NCBI GenBank assembly: GCA_041671725.1
Contig: JBAZAY010000007.1
Coordinates: 7,253 to 71,252, forward strand
Reading direction: 5' to 3'
DNA: 64,000 nt
DNA from: Gallionella sp.
GTDB lineage: Bacteria > Pseudomonadota > Gammaproteobacteria > Burkholderiales > Gallionellaceae
A program made the translations under genes and the position numbers. Below the pieces are notes generated by a model, which saw nothing but the letters and a program-made list of their open reading frames with translations, was not told where the DNA came from and made no database searches. Of this stretch, positions 4,510 to 59,399 are shown one piece after another; position 1 is the stretch's first letter; each line of letters starts with the position of its first letter.

Positions 4510-4726
4510 CAAATGTTTTTTAGGGTAAACAATTCCACTGACTGTTTTCGGGTGCCCGATGCTCAGCCCCGTACCAACCTCAGAACACCAGCAAGCCATT
4601 CAAATTGACTGCAGCACTGCACCCGGGATCAGCGATGCCATCACGCTGTGTGGTATACAGCAAAAAGAAAATCTGATACATATGCACACAGGTCGTTCCT
4701 GCCTCAATTTCAAGCTCGGAGGAAAT

Positions 4727-5137
4727 ATGAAGACAACGGATAGTAACGAGTTCCGCCATTTCTCGCGCATCCCTTTCCATGCGGATGTGCGACTGAATTT
4801 TTATCTGACGGATGAAGTTCAAACGCCCCACTTACTGGACATCTCGCTGAAAGGCGCACTGGTTCAAACTGAGCATCCCATCGTCAACTCTTTCAAGGGA
4901 GAGCGTTGCCGCATGACGCTTTTACTGGGTGAGGATGGTGAAAATATCACCATGGAAGGCAAGGTGATTCATCAGGAAGGGCAACTCTTGGGCATCGAAT
5001 GCCAGCATATCGATCTGGACAGCATGACCAACCTCAGGCGACTGGTTGAGTTAAATACCGGTGATGAAAAACTGCTGCAAAGGGAACTGGGCGAAATGTT
5101 GAAAATGGCTGCGGCTGATGCCAAGCCTGAATTGTAA
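4727..5137 (+). CDS. Stand-alone PilZ-domain protein (predicted c-di-GMP receptor)
   Basis: RxxxR (RHFSR) and DxSxxG (DISLKGA) motifs are present. ATG 4727 is preceded by GGAGGA. The upstream extension to 4559 given in the ORF track lacks an RBS. Confidence 0.8.
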   Translation: MKTTDSNEFRHFSRIPFHADVRLNFYLTDEVQTPHLLDISLKGALVQTEHPIVNSFKGERCRMTLLLGEDGENITMEGKVIHQEGQLLGIECQHIDLDSMTNLRRLVELNTGDEKLLQRELGEMLKMAAADAKPEL

Positions 5138-5821: not shown

Positions 5822-8800
5822 CTAGTGCGCGACATGCACAGAGGGACTTTCGGTAGTTCCACCCACTTGCAGTGCAACCGCCCCCGCACGCATCGTCAGA
5901 TCAGCCGAAATACTCCCTGACAACGCCTGACGGTTGATTATCAGTGTGCCACCCGCTTTCACTACGGCAGCGTTCATCTTAAGCTGACTGAACCGATAGC
6001 TGTCGTTGGCGTAAGACAACTCACCACTCAACTCGTCGAAGTGCGTTCGCCCCCCCGGCAAACTTTCCCTGCTGCGCAAACGGGTAGTTTCAACGATATC
6101 TACGCCATTGATGATGCCCTTTTTGACGCTGAAAACGCCATTGAGCACCGCCGCATCGGCAAGTTTAGCCAGATTAGCCGCCTGCATCTGGAAACGTGCC
6201 GTGCCATCCAGATCACCGGTGAGCAACTTGTTGATGTTCTGCAACGGGATCACTTTGGCGACCAGCGCCCCCTGCACGCGCCAACCGCTGCGCCAGTTTA
6301 TGCGCGCGTCCCCGGTCAGCACCCCACCCCGGACCCGACTATCCAGTTCGGTAATGCGCAACTCGTCGCGGCTCAACTCACCCACCGCCTTCAGCTCCTC
6401 AAATATCCAATTCGGCAATAACGGCAACGCACTGTCACGCAACGTCATGGTCAGCGCAAGCTTCTGCTCCGGCGTAGCACGAATTTCCAGCGCCAACTTA
6501 TGCCCGTTGGCATTCAAACTGGCTTGAGTAAACTTACCCGCAGCATCGAAATCAAGTTCGCCGTCCACATCCGAAAACTGTATACCGTCCGCATCCAATT
6601 GCACCTGAGTCAAGGCGATATGCCGGATCGGATACCGAGGATCGGCGGCCGTCTGTTGCAGCCAGCCTGACACCTGCATCAAGGCAGCGCCATTAACCTG
6701 CACACCATCCAACTCGATACTGGCTATGGACTTTACTGAACCGAACAGGGCAGGAAAGGCGAAATTCACTTGCGCCTGCCGTGCCTGGATCTGCTTCTCC
6801 TCACCGATATAGACATCGCTCAGCAGCAGATGCGGCGTTGGCAATATCCGCCCGGACAGATGCCCGACATGCACCGGTTGCTGCAATTTCGCACCCAGCA
6901 CCTGTTCGATACTTGCCACATAGCCCTGCGTAGGCAGCACGAGGGGAACAACAAATAATGCGACCACGAGCAAAGCCGCCAATCCCGCAGCCAGCTTGCC
7001 CCACGACACAGGCTTGCGGCGCGGTCGTGCCACTGACTTTTCGACCGGCACTGCATCAAGAGGCTGCTGAAAGGCCTGTTTAGGGACGCTTTCCGCCTTT
7101 TGACGAGCGAGTTCCGCCGCCCGCAACTCCGCTTCCTGCCACTTTTTAGCCTGCGCATCGGCCAACTGTCTGGCTTCTGCATCCGAATACTGAGGAGCTG
7201 CTTCCTCGGCTTCGCGGACTGCCTCTACCCGATTGACAGGCTCGACACTGGTATCTTCCTGCCGAATGCTCGCCACATCCTTGAAAAGTTGATTGGCTTC
7301 CCCCGATAGCAGAGGCTCTGCCGGGATTGGCATTTCTGGCTCATCCGGCTGCGATAAAGCCGCATCAAAATGCTCAAAACTGAAGGCCCCCAAATTATTG
7401 GATGGCTCAGGTGCCTGCACGGACTCATCCGTATCAGCGCACAACAACTCGTAAACCTGATGTTCACGTCCGTGCTTGTCCTGTTGCCCACCGCGATAGC
7501 GGAACAAGTCTTGGTACTCGTCGCTAAGATTCGCGACAAATTCAAAAAAAGCACGGGAAACATAAATTTGATCTTTGCCTGCAAAACTCATCACACGTTG
7601 CGCGCTGTTGATGCCATCGCCCAGCATGTTGATCTGGCCATTCATATCCTTGACCAGGCTGACGGGGCCGAGATGTATGCCGATACGTACGCGTAAATCC
7701 GGGTAGTCAAAATGCTTGTTTGCCAACAGGCTCGCGCGAAAATGTATCGCTGATTCCAGCGCATCCGTCGGATGTTGCAAAAATCCAATCGCAGCACCGT
7801 CGCCCGTATCCAGAATAATCCGCTCTCCTGCATCAAGCGAGGCCAGACTGTTAGTTACCAATTGGTTGAACTGTTGCTTCAGCTCGAGCTGTCTGCTGTC
7901 AGGCTGCTTGGTGTAACCCACGATATCGAAGAACAACACTGCCGCCGTGGTTGTCCTTCTCTCCACCACGGGAACGCCATTGTTTCCTCCCCGGCTGTCG
8001 CAACCTTTCACCGCTGGAGTGACTTGCCGTCTTTCCGTCACGGTGGTACCCGGCGAATCACTACGCGGCACCCACTCACGTGTTGCCGCAGCTGCCGCTG
8101 CCTGCTGTTTCGTCAATTCGTCCAGCGCCGAAAAAACACTTTCCTCCTCTGCGGCATGTTTTGCATTCAGCCTGACCACAGCAGCCAACATTTGGGCGTT
8201 TGTTTGCACCTCCTCGTGTTGCTGCGTATCCGCCGCCATCAACATCACATCATCAATCAGACGCGTAGCAGCTTCAACGTGTGCGCTCTCACTGGCTTTA
8301 AGTCGCTCTGTTTCCTGTTCCGCCTTGACACGCTCAGCGAGTTCGCGGGCGCCGCGTTCGGCTTGCAGTTTATCCGCCGCCACTTGCTCTGCCGCCCTTA
8401 TTCTCGCGGCCTCCTGCTCGGCAAGCTCACGTGCCGCTTCGGCTCGCCTGCGATCGTCCTCTTCCCGTACACGAGCTTCTGCGACGCGCTGCTCAACTTC
8501 TTGCCGTACGCGGGCGACCTCCTGTTCGGCTTTGACACGCGCAGCTTCAGCTTCTCGTTTTGCCTGCACCTCTGCGTCGCGATGCGCACGTGCTTCAGCC
8601 TCTGCGTGAGCCTTTAAGGCAGCAACTTCAGCTTCCAGCTTATTCTTCTCTTCCGCCACCGCTCTTGCTTGAGCGTCCGCCTCAGCCTTGACTTGAGCCG
8701 CATGCTGTTCTGCCCTGCGGGCGGTCGCCGCGACTTCGCTGGCATGACGCGCCGCCTCTGCTCGTTCACGAGCTTGTGCCTCGGCCGCTTCCTGCTCGGC

Positions 8801-9790
8801 CAACTGACGCGCGGCATCAGCCTGCTTTGCAATGCGCAAGGCCTCTTCTCGCGCTTCTGCCGCAGCACGCTGCCGGGCTAGCTCAACCTCCTCGCGGACA
8901 CGAATGACCTCTTGCTCGGCTTTGACACGCGCAGCTTCAGCCTCCCGTTTTGCCAGCAGATCGGCCTCGACACGTGCACGTGCTTCAGCCTCGGCTTGTG
9001 CCTTTAACTTTGTCACTTCGGCTTCCAGCCTGGCTTTTTCTGCCGCAGCGGCACGCGCTTGCTCCTCGGCAGCCTGTTGCTCTGCTTTACGTGCCGCCTC
9101 CACGGCCGCCTTGGCATGACGCTCCGCCTCTGCTCTGGCACGTGCTTGCGCCTCGACCGCTTGCTGCTCAGCCTTCACCCGCGCTGCGGCTTCTCGAGCC
9201 AGACGCTCCGCCTGTACACGGGCCGCCTCTGCCTGCAGCCTGGCTTGTTCTTTGGCACGCGCTTCGGCTTGCACCCTGGCCTCTTCCGCCTCGACTCTGG
9301 CGCGCTCGGCCGCTATAGCTCGCGTTTTCGCCTCGGCAGCCTCCTGTTCCGCCTTGACACGGGCAGCCTCCTCACGCGCCAGGCGTTGCGCTGCGTCGCG
9401 CTCTTCAGCCGCAACACGCGCCTGCTCTGCGGCCTTAACCTTGGCAGCTTCTTCCGCCAGCATGGTTTGCGTGGGCACACGATAAGCTGCGGTAAAATCC
9501 AGCTCGTCCACCTCATCAGACGATTTTTTAGGTGCTGCGGACAGCACCGGTCTGGGTGAGCTGGCGGGCTTGGCCTTGTCCTGAATAAAACCGCCCCTCA
9601 CCAGCTCGGCGAACATATCTGCCAACATGCCGCGCAGACTGGGTGAGGAACGCTTCATGATTTCAGCAACGGAGGCGGTTCCATCCACCATCAACAGGGC
9701 ACGTTTGATGTCTTTGGATAGAAGTGCCGTACGGTTGCGCGCCTCATCTTCGCCGCTGTCCGTTCTGACAAAAATAATTTTCTCATTCAT
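5822..9790 (-). CDS. 1322-aa multidomain protein: small N-terminal domain, Ala/Glu/Arg-rich coiled coil, class III adenylate/guanylate cyclase domain, one TM helix, and a periplasmic AsmA-like module
   Basis: Cyclase motifs at aa 613-785: VLFFDIVGYT, LDTGDGAAIGF, RIGIHLGPV, GDGINSAQRV. TM helix at aa 931-953 (LAAGLAALLVVALFVVPLVL). Aa 931-1322 align by eye end-to-end with the 451-aa AsmA-family protein at 58044-59399, for example FDELSGELSYANDSYRFSQ against FEQLSGQLVLAQRSYHFTQ. Confidence 0.85.
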   Translation of the reverse strand: MNEKIIFVRTDSGEDEARNRTALLSKDIKRALLMVDGTASVAEIMKRSSPSLRGMLADMFAELVRGGFIQDKAKPASSPRPVLSAAPKKSSDEVDELDFTAAYRVPTQTMLAEEAAKVKAAEQARVAAEERDAAQRLAREEAARVKAEQEAAEAKTRAIAAERARVEAEEARVQAEARAKEQARLQAEAARVQAERLAREAAARVKAEQQAVEAQARARAEAERHAKAAVEAARKAEQQAAEEQARAAAAEKARLEAEVTKLKAQAEAEARARVEADLLAKREAEAARVKAEQEVIRVREEVELARQRAAAEAREEALRIAKQADAARQLAEQEAAEAQARERAEAARHASEVAATARRAEQHAAQVKAEADAQARAVAEEKNKLEAEVAALKAHAEAEARAHRDAEVQAKREAEAARVKAEQEVARVRQEVEQRVAEARVREEDDRRRAEAARELAEQEAARIRAAEQVAADKLQAERGARELAERVKAEQETERLKASESAHVEAATRLIDDVMLMAADTQQHEEVQTNAQMLAAVVRLNAKHAAEEESVFSALDELTKQQAAAAAATREWVPRSDSPGTTVTERRQVTPAVKGCDSRGGNNGVPVVERRTTTAAVLFFDIVGYTKQPDSRQLELKQQFNQLVTNSLASLDAGERIILDTGDGAAIGFLQHPTDALESAIHFRASLLANKHFDYPDLRVRIGIHLGPVSLVKDMNGQINMLGDGINSAQRVMSFAGKDQIYVSRAFFEFVANLSDEYQDLFRYRGGQQDKHGREHQVYELLCADTDESVQAPEPSNNLGAFSFEHFDAALSQPDEPEMPIPAEPLLSGEANQLFKDVASIRQEDTSVEPVNRVEAVREAEEAAPQYSDAEARQLADAQAKKWQEAELRAAELARQKAESVPKQAFQQPLDAVPVEKSVARPRRKPVSWGKLAAGLAALLVVALFVVPLVLPTQGYVASIEQVLGAKLQQPVHVGHLSGRILPTPHLLLSDVYIGEEKQIQARQAQVNFAFPALFGSVKSIASIELDGVQVNGAALMQVSGWLQQTAADPRYPIRHIALTQVQLDADGIQFSDVDGELDFDAAGKFTQASLNANGHKLALEIRATPEQKLALTMTLRDSALPLLPNWIFEELKAVGELSRDELRITELDSRVRGGVLTGDARINWRSGWRVQGALVAKVIPLQNINKLLTGDLDGTARFQMQAANLAKLADAAVLNGVFSVKKGIINGVDIVETTRLRSRESLPGGRTHFDELSGELSYANDSYRFSQLKMNAAVVKAGGTLIINRQALSGSISADLTMRAGAVALQVGGTTESPSVHVAH
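8426..9202 (-). repeat. Internal tandem duplication (2 x about 390 nt / 130 aa) in the coiled-coil region of the cyclase fusion gene
   Basis: Nucleotides 8510-8660 match 8900-9050 at an offset of about 390. At protein level, EAEVTKLKAQAEAEARARVEADLLAKREAEAARVKAEQEVIRVREEVE matches EAEVAALKAHAEAEARAHRDAEVQAKREAEAARVKAEQEVARVRQEVE. Confidence 0.85.
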
Positions 9791-9929
9791 GCTTTATTCT
9801 AACTGATAGCAGCCTCAAGTTTGAATTGAAAAAACATTTTAAATGGCAACAACCCTTGCCACCATCTCACCAAAATAACCGCACACGTCAAACTGCCTGC
9901 AAACCCGCCAAAGAGTTGTTGTATTCGCA

Positions 9930-9958
9930 TTGACAACAGAACGATCGTTCTTTATATT
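9930..9958 (+). promoter_or_regulatory. Sigma-70-type promoter with an embedded 14-bp perfect palindrome (putative operator of the LexA-like repressor)
   Basis: TTGACA (9930-9935), 17-bp spacer, TATATT (9953-9958). AGAACGATCGTTCT (9938-9951) is a perfect palindrome inside the spacer. The ATG lies 27 nt downstream of the -10. Confidence 0.7.
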
Positions 9959-9984: not shown

Positions 9985-10572
9985 ATGAACCGCGACAAAG
10001 ATACCGAATACTTAAGCAAACTACAGGACTACTACGCCGACTGGAAAAATATCCCCTCCTACGCCCGCCTGTGCGAGATTTTCGGCATCGCTTCCAAGTC
10101 CTGGGTTAAAGCGATCCTGACCCGATTAGGTGATGCCGACTTCATCGAGCGCACCCCGGATGGCGCCTGGATACCGACACGTCAATTTTTCGCGCGCCCC
10201 TTGGCAGAGTCCTCCGTTCAGGCCGGCATGCCGGTTTCGGTAACCGCCACCCAGGGTGATTTCTTCATCATCGACGAGATGCTGATCGACACGCCATCCA
10301 AGACCACACTCATCACGGTCAAGGGGGACTCGATGATAGACGCCGGCATCCACGACGGTGACGTGGCCGTGGTGGAAAAACGCATGACCGCGAACATCGG
10401 CGATATTGTGGTCGCGATTGTGGACGACGACTTTACCCTGAAGACGCTGGACCGTGAAAATGGCGAGTTCATTTTGCGCCCGGCCAATCCGGCTTATCCT
10501 GTCATCCGCCCGCAGGGCACACTGGAAATATTCGGTGTGCTGACCGGGCTGGTTCGAAAATACCGGAGGTGA
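9985..10572 (+). CDS. lexA: LexA-family (S24 peptidase) transcriptional repressor with a divergent N-terminal DNA-binding domain
   Basis: 195 aa. C-terminal autopeptidase motifs: VQAGMP (cleavage-site region), GDSM (Ser) and TLKTL (Lys). The N-terminal 70 aa are wHTH-like (IPSYARLCEIFGIASKSWVKAILTRL). AAGGAA RBS. Confidence 0.8.
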   Translation: MNRDKDTEYLSKLQDYYADWKNIPSYARLCEIFGIASKSWVKAILTRLGDADFIERTPDGAWIPTRQFFARPLAESSVQAGMPVSVTATQGDFFIIDEMLIDTPSKTTLITVKGDSMIDAGIHDGDVAVVEKRMTANIGDIVVAIVDDDFTLKTLDRENGEFILRPANPAYPVIRPQGTLEIFGVLTGLVRKYRR

Positions 10573-10575
10573 AAC

Positions 10576-11031
10576 ATGCAACTGCCTTCAACACGCCGCA
10601 CCGCCCCCCTGCTATCTATGACTCACCCGAGCCGGGAGTTTTTCTGTCAACAGCGAGCCTTGTTGCGACGCGCCGTGCCGGCAGGCTTCCCCTCCCCCGC
10701 CGATGATTATGTAGAACTGCGCATCAGCCTGGACGAACACCTGATCGAACATCGTGAATCCACCTTCTTCATGCGCGTTGCAGGTGACTCCATGAAAGGC
10801 AAAGGCATCTTTGACGGCGACTTGCTGGTGGTGGATCGCGCCTTGTCGGCTGTGCATGGCTGCGTGGTCATTGCGGTGGTGGACGGCGAATTCACCGTCA
10901 AACAATTGCTGCACACGCCCAAGGGTCCCGTGTTGCGTGCCGCTCATCCGGACTATGCCGACATGCGCATCAAACCCGAGCAGGATTTCACCATCTGGGG
11001 CGTGGTGAGCTGGAACATACACAAACACTGA
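10576..11031 (+). CDS. umuD: Translesion DNA polymerase V autoproteolytic subunit UmuD
   Basis: AGFPSPADDYVE, GDSM and VDGEFTVKQL are nearly collinear with E. coli UmuD. ATG lies 4 nt after the lexA-like stop with GGAGG upstream, indicating translational coupling. Confidence 0.88.
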   Translation: MQLPSTRRTAPLLSMTHPSREFFCQQRALLRRAVPAGFPSPADDYVELRISLDEHLIEHRESTFFMRVAGDSMKGKGIFDGDLLVVDRALSAVHGCVVIAVVDGEFTVKQLLHTPKGPVLRAAHPDYADMRIKPEQDFTIWGVVSWNIHKH

Positions 11032-11050
11032 TTCACCTGCACCAACCTAT

Positions 11051-11327
11051 AAAAATCCGTCTCACGCGGAGGCGCGGAGAACGCGGAGAAAATAAATAAA
11101 CAAAAACAATTATTTACAATCCATCCACCCCTATTCATTAACCTGAAAACAGCAATTATCCACAAAACTCACGAAATGGGTTGGACAGGCAATCTACGCA
11201 GCGGATAATCGCAAAAAAACTAATAAATTCAAAAGCATGCCAATGATTTTAGCGTCACCAATTTGGTGAATAACAGTTTATAGGTAATGTATTGGTTTTA
11301 CTCCGCGTTCTCCGCGTCTCCGCGTGA
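11051..11327. repeat. Family-B miniature inverted-repeat element (about 277 bp)
   Basis: Termini are CTCACGCGGAGGCGCGGAGAACGCGGAG (11051-11078) and, inverted, CTCCGCGTTCTCCGCGTCTCCGCGTGA (11301-11327). They flank an AT-rich core. Confidence 0.8.
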
Positions 11328-11380
11328 AACTGCTTTTTAAGGATTAAAGCCGATCCAGGTTTTTACATTGTTTCGGTTTT

Positions 11381-11410
11381 CTCTGCGTTCTCCGCGCCTC
11401 CGCGTGAGAC
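11381..11410. repeat. Solo family-B terminus
   Basis: CTCTGCGTTCTCCGCGCCTCCGCGTGAGAC has the same three-word (CTCCGCG) structure and lies 11 nt upstream of the umuC ATG. Confidence 0.75.
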
Positions 11411-11420
11411 TGTATTTTAT

Positions 11421-12713
11421 ATGTCCGTTAAAAAAATGATTCGACGCGCTATTGCCCTGATAGATTGCAACAACTTCTACGTCTCCTGTGAACGGCTGTT
11501 CCAACCTGCCCTTGAAGGCCGTCCTGTCGTGATATTGAGCAACAACGATGGCTGCGTGGTGTCGCGCTCGCAGGAAGTCAAAGACCTGGGCGTTCTGATG
11601 GCCGCCCCTTGGTTCCAGTTAAAGGACCTCGCCCAAAAACACGGCATCACCGCCCTGTCCTCCAACTACACCCTGTACGCCGACCTGTCCAACCGGGTGA
11701 TGCGGCTGTTATCGCAATTTGCACCCAATCAGGAAGTCTATTCGATAGATGAATGTTTTCTGGAACTGACCGGCATGCCCGAACTGACCCGATATGGACA
11801 GCAGATGCGCAGCACGATCAAACAGTGCGTCGGTATTCCGGTGTGTGTCGGCATCGCACCCAGCAAGACGCTGGCAAAGCTTGCCAATCATGTCGCCAAA
11901 AAGCAGCCGAGCTTTAATGGGGTGTGCAACTTTAACGAACTGTCTGAAGACGAACTGGACAACCTGCTTGAAAAAATCGGCGTGGGCGAAATCTGGGGCG
12001 TGGGAAGACGTACCTTCACTCGCCTTCAGGAAATGGGCATAGGTTCCGTGCTGGCACTGAAACGCGCATCGGCAAAACGCATCCGCGCCGAGTTTGGCGT
12101 GGTGGTGGAGCGCACCGTGGCAGAACTCAATGGCACGGCCTGCCTGGAACTGGAGGAACTCGCCTCATCCCGGTTACAAATCATCTGCTCGCGTTCGTTC
12201 GGCGCGTCCGTATATCACCTATCCGAACTGGAACAGGCCGTGATCGCCTACACCAGCCGCGCCGCCGAGAAGTTGCGCCACCAGCGATCGCTGGCAACGT
12301 GCGTACAAGTGTCCATCCGCACCAACCCGCATCAGACAAAAGTGCCGCAATATCAACCCAGCCTGACCCTCCCGCTGGCCGAGCCTAGCGATGACACGCG
12401 GGTACTGTGTCACGCTGCATTGAACGGATTACGCCAGATTTATCGGGACGGCTACCCTTACCAAAAAGCCGGCGTCATGCTGTCCGGCATCATCGCCGCA
12501 ATCGACCGTCCCCGCACCCTGTTCGACGATGTCGCCGCAATGCAAAAATCCAGTGCATTGATGGCAACACTGGATCAGATCAACCGTCGCATGGGTAGCG
12601 GTACGGTACAGCTGCTGGGCGAAGGGATCAGAAAAAGCTGGTCGATGAAACGGGGATGCGTGTCCCAGCGCTATACGACGGAACTTAATGAGCTGGCGGT
12701 AGCGTATGCCTGA
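11421..12713 (+). CDS. umuC: Y-family DNA polymerase V catalytic subunit UmuC
   Basis: IALIDCNNFYVSCERLFQP, SNNDGCVV and SIDECFL are Y-family palm motifs. 430 aa. ATG 11436 is an alternative start. Confidence 0.9.
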   Translation: MSVKKMIRRAIALIDCNNFYVSCERLFQPALEGRPVVILSNNDGCVVSRSQEVKDLGVLMAAPWFQLKDLAQKHGITALSSNYTLYADLSNRVMRLLSQFAPNQEVYSIDECFLELTGMPELTRYGQQMRSTIKQCVGIPVCVGIAPSKTLAKLANHVAKKQPSFNGVCNFNELSEDELDNLLEKIGVGEIWGVGRRTFTRLQEMGIGSVLALKRASAKRIRAEFGVVVERTVAELNGTACLELEELASSRLQIICSRSFGASVYHLSELEQAVIAYTSRAAEKLRHQRSLATCVQVSIRTNPHQTKVPQYQPSLTLPLAEPSDDTRVLCHAALNGLRQIYRDGYPYQKAGVMLSGIIAAIDRPRTLFDDVAAMQKSSALMATLDQINRRMGSGTVQLLGEGIRKSWSMKRGCVSQRYTTELNELAVAYA

Positions 12714-58043: not shown

Positions 58044-59399
58044 CTATTTTTTAGATTTTTTCGCCTCCGGTGTGCCGAACAAGCCTTCCGCCCACCCGCC
58101 GATTTTTGCCCCGACTGAAGTACCAAACCCCGGTCCCATCAGGACAGTGCCTACCGCCGCCCCTGCCATCGTCCCACCCGTGGGATAAAGTACCGGCGTA
58201 TCGATCGTGCCGGTAACGTTAAGCGGCACGCCGGTGCTGACGCCCAGCGCACTGACCTCTGCGTTGATACGTCCCGACAGCGCTTTCTTGGGCGAGATGG
58301 TCACCTGACCGTCGACAGCCAGTGACCCCGAAGCTATCCTGATTTGCGTGAAATGGTAGCTGCGCTGCGCCAGCACCAGCTGCCCGGACAGCTGCTCGAA
58401 ACGCGTTTCCCCGCCGCTCGTGGCCTGCCCGACCAGACTGGTGGCGGCCTTCTGGATATCAATATCGTGCAGCGCGCCATTTTGCACATTAAAAAACATT
58501 TTCAGCCGCAACGCATTGATGAGCTGATCTGCCGAAGCTGCCGTTGCTGCAAAAGCCGGTTGTGCACTGAGCTTGCCGCTGACATGGACGCCAGGTGACA
58601 GCAAAGAGGCTACTTGCTGCACTTCAATGTGACGTATGTCGAAATTGCCGTTGAGCTGCACCCCCCTCTGCCAGCTAATGGACGTTTTGCCGATGGCTGT
58701 GCCGCCATAGAGTTTGGCGCTCACCACGCCAAAATTGGCATCGTGCCGGGTGACCACCCCCTTGAGGATCAACTCGTCGAACACAAGCGCCGGCCCCGCC
58801 GGCAAGGTCCAGGCTTTCGCACTCGCATCGATCAGGTAGTTTGATTTGTCAGACGGATCAGGCTTGATGAGCGCGCGCAGCTTGCCATCCTGCGTGGCAA
58901 TCGATGCATCCGCCAGTTCGCTCAAGTGGTTCAGGCTGATGTGCGCATTAAGCGGACCCACGCTCACCTTGCCGAAATTGACCAGCACGTTATCAAACTG
59001 AATACTCTCCACCCGGATTTGCTGAGGCGAACGTGCGGCATCCGGCTTGGCCCATGTTGAAATTTTGGCTATCGTCTTCTGCGTCACGGTCACAGAATCA
59101 ATCTCGACGCGCTTGATGACCTTGACAGGCTGCAGCAGCGAGAAAAGATCGGGGGTCACCCGCAACTTGCCGAGCATGATGCCATCCGCCCCCCCCAGCG
59201 CAATACCGTCGAGCGTGACATACGGCAATGGCAGCAAGGTAAACCTGATGCTTTTTATCGATACCGGTTCTTTTAATCTGCTTGAGATTTCCTGCTCGAT
59301 CTGCGGAATGTAATCGTTGAGAGAGATGAAAAAAGGCAGCGCCACCGCAGTTGCAAGCAGCAACACGAAGGCGATCAGTATGCGTTTAAACCATTTCAT
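58044..59399 (-). CDS. AsmA-family protein (451 aa)
   Basis: N-terminal TM anchor ILIAFVLLLATAVALPFF followed by a beta-rich periplasmic domain. It is collinear with aa 931-1322 of the cyclase fusion protein. Confidence 0.75.
   Translation of the reverse strand: MKWFKRILIAFVLLLATAVALPFFISLNDYIPQIEQEISSRLKEPVSIKSIRFTLLPLPYVTLDGIALGGADGIMLGKLRVTPDLFSLLQPVKVIKRVEIDSVTVTQKTIAKISTWAKPDAARSPQQIRVESIQFDNVLVNFGKVSVGPLNAHISLNHLSELADASIATQDGKLRALIKPDPSDKSNYLIDASAKAWTLPAGPALVFDELILKGVVTRHDANFGVVSAKLYGGTAIGKTSISWQRGVQLNGNFDIRHIEVQQVASLLSPGVHVSGKLSAQPAFAATAASADQLINALRLKMFFNVQNGALHDIDIQKAATSLVGQATSGGETRFEQLSGQLVLAQRSYHFTQIRIASGSLAVDGQVTISPKKALSGRINAEVSALGVSTGVPLNVTGTIDTPVLYPTGGTMAGAAVGTVLMGPGFGTSVGAKIGGWAEGLFGTPEAKKSKK

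Follow-up and report, generated by a model that had tools for sequence, protein, structure and literature searches.

In a stretch of 64,000 nucleotides of a Gallionella sp. contig (JBAZAY010000007.1, positions 7,253 to 71,252; the whole stretch is called the window below), a single gene encodes a 1322-residue protein in which a class III cyclase homology domain (CHD) is joined through one transmembrane (TM) helix to a short AsmA-like module. From the N terminus to the C terminus, the protein consists of an N-terminal domain (N-domain), a charged helical stalk, the CHD, a linker, the TM helix and the AsmA-like module (C-module) (Table 1). The combination of a cyclase with an AsmA-like module is real and conserved; both component families are already known, and the combination is a variant that joins them. 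The reading that we favour, and to which we give about an even chance of being right, is that of a lineage-specific, single-copy inner-membrane scaffold of the Gallionellaceae with a tethered accessory cyclase output, set by proximity or oligomerisation. A first-pass annotation of this DNA had stated that no characterised example was known. None turned up in the literature searched, where no description of a cyclase-AsmA fusion, of a CHD-PEGA subfamily (described below) or of a relevant Gallionellaceae adenylate cyclase was found.

The protein search returned 315 relatives, the best-scoring 120 of which have a common architecture and carry the names of Gallionella, Gallionellaceae or Nitrosomonadales metagenome-assembled genomes (MAGs). 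More than 100 homologues with the full architecture were found at 50-78% identity. Nearly all orthologues carry the fusion as a single uninterrupted open reading frame (ORF), as seen at 62 of 65 testable species-level loci. Automated annotation already names both domains in homologues, the NCBI labels being 'AsmA-like C-terminal region-containing' or 'adenylate/guanylate cyclase domain-containing' protein.

The only Pfam domain above threshold in the whole protein was Guanylate_cyc (PF00211), which scored 25.8 bits with the whole sequence and 29.5 bits with residues 591-920 alone, against a gathering cutoff of 21.9. A profile of the CHD subfamily matched solved class III cyclases with E-values (E) down to 1.9e-10, including rhodopsin-guanylyl cyclase (6ao9/6aoa), Ma1120 (4wp9), Rv1900c (1ybt), 3mr7 and P. 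aeruginosa CyaB (3r5g). The three cyclase motifs on which the first-pass annotation had relied were all located, FFDIVGYT at residues 620-627, LDTGDGAAIGF at 660-670 and GDGINSAQRV at 724-733, and the metal-binding Asp residues and the Asn/Arg pair that it had assigned were confirmed by alignment with solved cyclases. In the alignments, D622 (FFDIVGYT) and D664 (TGDGAA) fall on the two metal-binding Asp residues of 3et6 and 3mr7, and they are invariant or nearly so across 110 homologues and in unfused relatives. N728 and R732 (GDGINSAQRV), which are conserved in homologues and unfused relatives, align with the TVNTASR motif (transition-state Asn/Arg) of rhodopsin-guanylyl cyclase and soluble guanylyl cyclase. 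The domain extends to its final strand (DKHGREHQVYEL), and its C-terminal Lys (DKHGREH) is invariant across phyla.

Conservation was expressed throughout as the mean frequency of the commonest residue per column. By this measure the CHD is the most conserved region of the protein, with a mean of 0.84 and 64 of 175 columns conserved at 98% or more in the 110 homologues. Given this strong constraint, and given that the invariant residues are common to unfused relatives of other phyla, the CHD probably contains a working active or ligand site and is, to judge from its residues, not a degenerate or decaying domain, in agreement with the earlier call. Canonical base-specifying pairs of class III cyclases are Lys/Asp for ATP and of the Glu/Cys type for GTP. 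In the window protein, Leu660 occupies the Lys position of 3mr7 (vKTtGDG), Asp661 pairs with the Glu of guanylyl cyclase 3et6 given a one-residue gap, and Asn721 occupies the position of C566, which is Cys in wild-type rhodopsin-guanylyl cyclase (6ao9) and Asp in the ATP-converted mutant (6aoa).

The sole strongly hydrophobic segment of the protein is covered by 19-residue hydropathy intervals starting at residues 927-943, and AlphaFold2 predicted a helix at residues 930-951; the TM helix called earlier at residues 931-953 is thus upheld. RPRRKPVSWGK precedes the segment, from which the positive-inside rule predicts a cytoplasmic location for the first 930 residues. This and the AlphaFold2 model accord with the cytoplasmic cyclase predicted before, and the predicted location of the AsmA-like module is the periplasm.

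Similarity of the C-module to AsmA-family proteins was evident within the window itself. BLASTP aligned residues 940-1319 with residues 13-405 of a stand-alone 451-residue AsmA-family paralogue (26% identity, E 2e-31), and the three peptide pairs that had been quoted for this collinearity are in register. The paralogue scored 43.9 bits against Pfam AsmA (cutoff 29.8). Among the C-modules of family members, AsmA was matched in 18 of 18 at E<=1e-3 (best 8e-13) and YhdP in 16 of 18; the query C-module also matched YhdP (22.5 bits) and DUF748 (16.6 bits). The AlphaFold2 model of residues 906-1322 (predicted local distance difference test score, pLDDT, 82.5; predicted template-modelling score, pTM, 0.71) consists of the TM helix, a short helix and approximately 24 beta-strands. 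Its best Foldseek matches were to the lipid-bound Atg2 N-terminal (chorein-type) domain (probability 0.98-0.99, E approximately 0.01), with LptC further down the list. In the paralogue, the C-terminal 45 residues or so (window 58044-58180) form a Gly-rich hydrophobic tail (GGTMAGAAVGTVLMGPGFGTSVGAKIGGWAEGLFG...KKSKK), which is absent from the fused protein and had no Pfam match; the tail resembles a glycine-zipper membrane segment and could make a second membrane contact.

The module had been described as a complete, envelope-spanning AsmA-like protein. It is complete relative to the short paralogue, but it is far shorter than characterised AsmA-like proteins: its periplasmic part has about 370 residues, against 617 for the whole of E. 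coli AsmA. The corresponding lengths are 869 residues for YdbH and approximately 1260 for YhdP and TamB (PMC10345924). The family definition comprises an inner-membrane helix at the N terminus, a chorein-N start and a beta-groove of hydrophobic character (PMC10345924), and even the 869-residue YdbH reaches the outer membrane only with a partner (PMC10345924), which is YnbE (PMC10345924, PMC11126948). By proportion, a periplasmic part of about 370 residues therefore falls well short of spanning the envelope alone, and the term envelope-spanning is not supported.

The N-domain had been passed over in the first-pass account of the cytoplasmic 930 residues. It is strongly conserved across 67 homologues (mean 0.75, level with the 0.75 of the AsmA-like module), with the consensus FVRTxxGEDE...KRALLMVDG...KRxxPSLR...GGFIQDK, and the Pfam scan of residues 1-75 matched no family. 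AlphaFold2 predicted a small helical domain (pLDDT approximately 87 over residues 1-70). Its best Foldseek matches were winged helices of SEA/GATOR1 subunits (probability 0.96, but E 0.23), the RPC39 winged helix and RRE domains ranking lower, and its best PDB profile match was the helix-turn-helix (HTH) region of an HxlR-type regulator of the winged type, which was weak (E 0.23). The fold and profile searches, each weak, thus agree that the N-domain may be winged-helix-like. A word-index homology search with the N-domain alone returned 7 fragments only and was uninformative. In the ELDFT motif that follows the N-domain, the central L97, D98 and F99 never vary, and E96 and T100 are conserved at 90% or more; residues 96-104 have a mean conservation of 0.88.

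The stalk had been taken for a TolA-like Ala/Glu/Arg coiled coil of about 420 residues. The composition part of that description holds for residues 106-530 (Ala 32%, Glu 19%, Arg 14%; Pro plus Gly 0.5%; LIVMFYW 13.6%), and the coiled-coil part does not. Periodicity analysis of the same residues revealed no 3.5-residue (heptad) repeat, whereas opposite-charge i,i+4 pairs numbered 77 against 35.2+-4.8 in shuffled sequences. An absence of heptad periodicity together with an excess of i,i+4 charge pairs is the signature of a single alpha-helix rather than of a coiled coil, and the stalk accordingly looks like a charged single alpha-helix of the ER/K type. No match to Pfam TolA was found in the protein. 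Fully extended, at 0.15 nm per residue, the stalk would measure about 60 nm. The distance from N-domain to CHD ranges from 214 to 591 residues among 69 homologues, the window's copy being the longest. A recent origin of the stalk by tandem repeats was considered and rejected: a single 24-bp repeat in 2 copies was all that the DNA contained, and BLAST revealed no internal repeats.

Conservation falls to 0.37 and 0.51 in the two linkers that flank the CHD. The one between the CHD and the TM helix comprises approximately 145 residues, most of them poorly conserved and Pro/Glu-rich, and no HAMP, signalling helix (S-helix) or cyclase-transducer element was detected in it. Within it, the juxtamembrane helix at residues 868-900 stands out, with a conservation of 0.72 against 0.49-0.51 in the flanking linkers, and it is kept in orthologues with and without a CHD (consensus of the CHD-less proteins; P0120). 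Directly after the CHD lies FSFEHFD (residues 803-809, window 7364-7384), an aromatic/acidic FxFxxFD motif with an invariant F808. Orthologues without a CHD retain this motif directly after the stalk, and it may be a linear interaction motif.

Table 1. Coordinates in the window of the fusion gene, its parts, its promoter and the stand-alone paralogue.
Feature	Position in window	Strand	Basis
Whole gene, 1322-residue bitopic inner-membrane protein	5822..9790	(-)	ORF listing
N-terminal conserved domain, residues 1-75, winged-helix-like (tentative)	9566..9790	(-)	Conservation, AlphaFold2, Foldseek, PDB profile search
ELDFT motif, residues 96-100, between N-domain and stalk	9491..9505	(-)	Homologue alignment
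Ala/Glu/Arg/Gln/Lys-rich alpha-helical stalk, residues 106-530	8201..9475	(-)	Composition, charge-pair analysis
Class III CHD, residues 611-785	7436..7960	(-)	Pfam PF00211 above gathering cutoff; subfamily profile against solved cyclases
Pre-TM juxtamembrane helix, residues 868-900, QAKKWQEAELRA	7091..7189	(-)	Conservation
Single TM helix, residues 931-953, N-in	6932..7000	(-)	Hydropathy; AlphaFold2
Periplasmic AsmA-like, almost all-beta module, residues 954-1322	5825..6931	(-)	BLASTP, Pfam, AlphaFold2, Foldseek
Stand-alone 451-residue AsmA-family paralogue (N-terminal TM helix and same short module)	58044..59399	(-)	Pfam; comparator
Sigma70-like promoter, TTCAAA-18 nt-TAGAAT, inside conserved motif GCTATCAGTTAGAAT	9796..9825	(-)	Promoter scan

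The C-module was found at 101 loci in species-representative genomes, and the best 80 of these were surveyed as orthologues. The specific labels among the 80 are Gallionella, Gallionellaceae, Sideroxydans, Ferrigenium and Nitrosomonadales, and the complete genome of Candidatus Ferrigenium straubiae strain KS is included. Each assembly occurs once among the 80 loci; the gene is thus single-copy in at least 75 genomes at species level, and the idea that proteins with and without a CHD are coexisting paralogues was rejected on this ground. The CHD is present at 59 loci and absent from 16, the other 5 being truncated at contig ends; the 16 orthologues without it, of 75 at species level, keep all other parts, and the N-domain and stalk are retained in every one. 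Among CHD-less proteins the nearest is P0120, with 75-77% identity in the N-domain and AsmA module; exactly residues 530-794 are missing from it. In a neighbour-joining tree of the AsmA module, proteins with and without a CHD are interleaved and the deepest branches carry it, which suggests an ancestral fusion followed by repeated losses of the CHD. The exhaustive search of representatives yielded three groups, namely full fusions down to approximately 32% identity, the most divergent of which come from Logan assemblies, CHD-less scaffolds, and short CHD-only proteins. Genome scans with single proteins gave 2 loci for the CHD-less P0138 and 0 for the basal fusion P0190.

The CHD subfamily is not confined to the fusion, a point that the first-pass annotation had overlooked. 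At least 489 loci were found in species-representative genomes, from Burkholderiales, Rhodocyclaceae, Deltaproteobacteria, Ignavibacteria, Terriglobia, Acidiferrobacterales and others. Fused and unfused CHDs are 45-55% identical and share the invariant motifs DTGDGAA, GDGIN.AQR and DKH.REH. The unfused members have 270-560 residues and begin with the CHD, after which come, in most cases, a single TM helix and then a C-terminal region; the layout CHD-TM-periplasmic domain was seen at 32 loci with one TM helix each, the periplasmic domain being PEGA in 12 of 28. Given this layout, the window protein can be seen, as far as domain order can tell, as the form that a general CHD-TM-periplasmic-domain plan takes in the Gallionellaceae. 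The two types coexist in one Gallionella MAG, fused at L018 and unfused at L063. At 19 of 45 unfused loci, versus 0 of 47 fusion loci, a gene for a membrane Ser/Thr kinase lies directly 3' on the same strand. A gene for a small protein of approximately 129 residues recurs at 12 unfused loci, and the one example inspected has a lipoprotein-type signal and Cys at its start. Examples of genes in these clusters, among L048-L094, are L082:4483-5679 and 6122-7354, and L066:5683-6072. The unfused CHD-PEGA/kinase cluster may be a signalling operon distributed over several phyla.

Compared with known systems, the C-terminal part of the fusion is like the short AsmA-like proteins of E. coli (AsmA, YicH, YhjG), the YdbH-YnbE bridge and Pfam clan CL0401 in that a periplasmic, almost all-beta module comes directly after a TM helix. 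Its Pfam similarity is to the N-terminal part of AsmA, YhdP and DUF748, and the top matches in its fold search are to the Atg2 chorein-type lipid-transfer domain. Known AsmA-like members begin with the TM helix, whereas that of the fusion is internal, after 930 cytoplasmic residues (PMC10345924). Unlike YdbH-YnbE, the fusion has no linked partner gene. With membrane-anchored class III cyclases, the protein shares the cyclase fold, the Asp pair, the Asn/Arg pair and a membrane tether with an extracytoplasmic domain; it differs from them in that the CHD is N-terminal to the TM helix and the sensor-type domain C-terminal, in that HAMP, CHASE and signalling helix are lacking, and in the base residues Leu660/Asp661 and Asn721. 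The unfused CHD-TM-PEGA proteins belong to the same CHD subfamily and have the same order of CHD, one TM helix and periplasmic domain, but they are devoid of N-domain and stalk, carry PEGA instead of the AsmA-like module, and are often linked to a kinase.

TolA domain II and ER/K single alpha-helices are extended spacers rich in Ala, Glu, Lys and Arg. The stalk is like them in its near-absence of Pro and Gly, its many i,i+4 pairs and its position as a spacer beside a membrane anchor; unlike TolA domain II, it is predicted to be cytoplasmic rather than periplasmic, gives no Pfam TolA match and varies in length between orthologues. ToxR and CadC are membrane-bound regulators with an N-terminal cytoplasmic winged helix, one TM helix and a C-terminal periplasmic domain. 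The fusion resembles them in logic only, without a sequence relationship; in addition, about 850 residues, including the cyclase domain, separate its head from the membrane, and the winged-helix assignment of that head is weak.

Architecture, topology signals, conservation, modularity and distribution are read directly from the data above, and we propose from them a mechanism in which catalysis, dimerisation, lipid handling and coupling between the halves are predicted steps. The conserved core would be a scaffold composed of the winged-helix-like head, the charged stalk, the juxtamembrane helix, the TM helix and the short AsmA-like beta module of the bridge-like lipid-transfer type, with a membrane-tethered class III CHD built into its cytoplasmic part. 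All catalytic residues lie in one chain, which, from established knowledge of class III cyclases, points to a homodimer; two copies of the protein would pair their CHDs in the usual head-to-tail fashion and would make a cyclic nucleotide, of a base that is not predictable, at the inner membrane face. Proximity or oligomerisation of the anchor and stalk would control activity, with no rigid relay across the membrane. Since the CHD is lost cleanly in some orthologues, the cyclase would be an accessory regulatory output and not the core function; this clean loss, together with a mostly unconserved linker of approximately 145 residues in which no transducer was detected, favours a tethered accessory output.

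Several observations weigh against this proposal. The base-specifying positions (Leu660/Asp661, Asn721) match neither the Lys/Asp nor the Glu/Cys pair, so that the sequence does not justify naming the product cAMP or cGMP, as had been done earlier; with such positions the CHD could also bind rather than cyclise its nucleotide, or use an unexpected substrate. In the neighbourhoods examined, no cyclic-nucleotide receptor or phosphodiesterase is linked to the locus. On the periplasmic side, the query C-module scored 26.0 bits (E 5e-6) against Pfam AsmA (PF05170), just below the gathering cutoff of 29.8 that the paralogue exceeds. An hhalign comparison of the C-module profile with E. coli K-12 AsmA, in which the single-sequence template gives low power, returned a non-significant probability of 1.25%, and the Atg2 fold matches have low template-modelling scores (0.16-0.22). 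Considering the below-cutoff score alongside the 18 of 18 family matches and the non-significant comparison with E. coli AsmA, the C-module is AsmA-like at the family level and is not a close relative of AsmA. Finally, the neighbour-joining tree is crude and does not fix the number and direction of CHD gains and losses.

We rank the tethered accessory output above an envelope sensor, a non-catalytic CHD and a winged-helix regulator, in that order, and these readings are not all mutually exclusive. An envelope-state sensor was the idea of the first-pass annotation: lipid occupancy or outer-membrane contact of the AsmA-like module would be relayed by the TM helix to the cyclase, and the cyclic nucleotide would report lipid status. 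The topology is right for it, the cytoplasmic catalytic core is intact and highly conserved, the juxtamembrane helix is conserved, and a cytoplasmic CHD with one TM helix and a periplasmic domain, found subfamily-wide, is a receptor layout. However, the long, mostly unconserved connection from CHD to TM helix shows no HAMP, S-helix or transducer, 16 of 75 orthologues manage with no CHD, and a module of this length could report on the outer membrane only with a partner, for which no linked gene was seen; we consider a sensor of this kind improbable. We think it less probable again that the CHD is a pseudo-cyclase without catalysis, which would bind nucleotide or dimerise so as to regulate or oligomerise the scaffold, no second messenger being produced. 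The non-canonical base-recognition positions and the modest Pfam score (25.8-29.5 bits) would fit this, and a Ser/Thr kinase gene directly downstream at some 19 of 45 unfused loci fits protein-protein signalling, but both Asp residues, the Asn, the Arg and the C-terminal Lys are invariant across phyla, which would be difficult to account for if no chemistry took place at the site. Activity is also known from characterised cyclases whose specificity pairs are unusual, for example some mycobacterial enzymes.

The conserved N-domain could also place the protein among membrane-tethered winged-helix regulators with a ToxR/CadC-like logic, in which the head, on a stalk of up to about 60 nm, would bind DNA or a cytoplasmic partner and would be modulated by the AsmA-like anchor and the CHD. 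This we regard as doubtful. The N-domain is as conserved as the AsmA-like module, its best fold matches are winged helices, its best profile match is an HxlR-type HTH, and it is kept with the stalk in all CHD-less orthologues; yet all of this evidence is weak, with E at 0.23 in both searches, and winged helices also serve protein-protein contacts. An anti-phage cyclase of the Pycsar type, or another mobile defence gene, is very improbable and was rejected as a role. The excised CHD weakly matches PycC of PADLOC (20.2 bits, E 6e-5), but this score is below that of the generic Pfam cyclase model, the full protein and an unfused relative give no PycC match, and the gene is single-copy and syntenic (aspartate aminotransferase, lexA-umuDC) across the Gallionellaceae, with no effector gene nearby.

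The fusion gene appears to be monocistronic. The -10 hexamer of its promoter ends 5 nt before the ATG, and no Shine-Dalgarno sequence is present in the window gene, which together suggest that the fusion mRNA is a candidate leaderless transcript. The upstream motif GC(T)ATCAGTTAGAAT, present in the window and in the upstream regions of L002-L014, occurs in 13 of 13 aligned loci, where it ends 5-7 nt before the start codon, and is kept even in loci with 48-55% protein identity. The spacer bases GCTATCAGT are more conserved than a promoter needs and may be an operator. The same upstream motif accounts for spurious 'YQLEY.M' N-terminal extensions in some database gene calls. A terminator-like hairpin (9841-9867, - strand; 12-bp stem followed by a T-rich tract) lies between the divergent lexA promoter and the fusion promoter, where the upstream alignment is otherwise poorly conserved.

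Among the neighbours in 47 fusion loci, aspartate aminotransferase is downstream in 24, umuC is found in 12 and lexA/umuD in 11, and no conserved operon partner was found in these loci; none of the neighbours hints at a function. In the window, a lexA, umuD-like and umuC-like cluster (9985-12713) is syntenic and divergent from the fusion gene. A perfect 14-bp palindrome, AGAACGATCGTTCT (GAAC-N4-GTTC type, 9938-9951), lies between the -35 and -10 elements of the lexA-like gene promoter (9930-9958, + strand) and is conserved in related loci, and no CTGT-N8-ACAG box was found anywhere in the window; this suggests that LexA of the lineage uses a Cheo-box-like operator. Control of the fusion gene by SOS/LexA is unsupported, as the palindrome is in the divergent lexA promoter, approximately 110 bp upstream of the fusion promoter, and the CTGT-N8-ACAG box is absent. 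A gene for a PilZ-domain protein (PF07238, 51 bits; 4559-5137, + strand) lies just downstream of the fusion gene, and a 723-residue protein (715-2886, + strand) shows, by eye, a GGDEF motif and EAL-like motifs, so that cyclic di-GMP genes flank the fusion in the window. The PilZ and cytochrome c genes beside the fusion are specific to the window and had no counterpart in the related loci examined.

AsmA-like proteins are leading candidates for inner-to-outer-membrane phospholipid movement. To our knowledge, the sensing or regulation of AsmA-type lipid flow has not been elucidated, and all characterised AsmA-like members start with a membrane anchor and have no cytoplasmic domain. The protein described here carries 930 cytoplasmic residues that include an intact-looking signalling enzyme, which is moderately surprising for the AsmA field. 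The findings also delineate an unstudied class III CHD subfamily of at least 489 loci in several phyla, with an unusual CHD-then-TM topology, unusual base residues and frequent kinase linkage. These implications are tempered by the dispensability of the cyclase in about a fifth of orthologues, by the shortness of the periplasmic module, and by the hosts, iron-oxidising Gallionellaceae that are hard to grow and to manipulate genetically. In the most far-reaching version, which we think unlikely, a periplasmic lipid-transfer module would be coupled both to non-canonical cyclic-nucleotide synthesis and to a winged-helix head on a stalk of up to about 60 nm, as an envelope-to-cytoplasm or envelope-to-nucleoid signalling device; if so, the state of intermembrane lipid transport would be read out as a second messenger or a transcriptional response. 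More generally, the fusion makes it possible to test whether lipid-bridge modules communicate with signalling in the cytoplasm, and, if its two halves do so, it would for the first time connect a bridge-like lipid-transfer module directly with second-messenger signalling.

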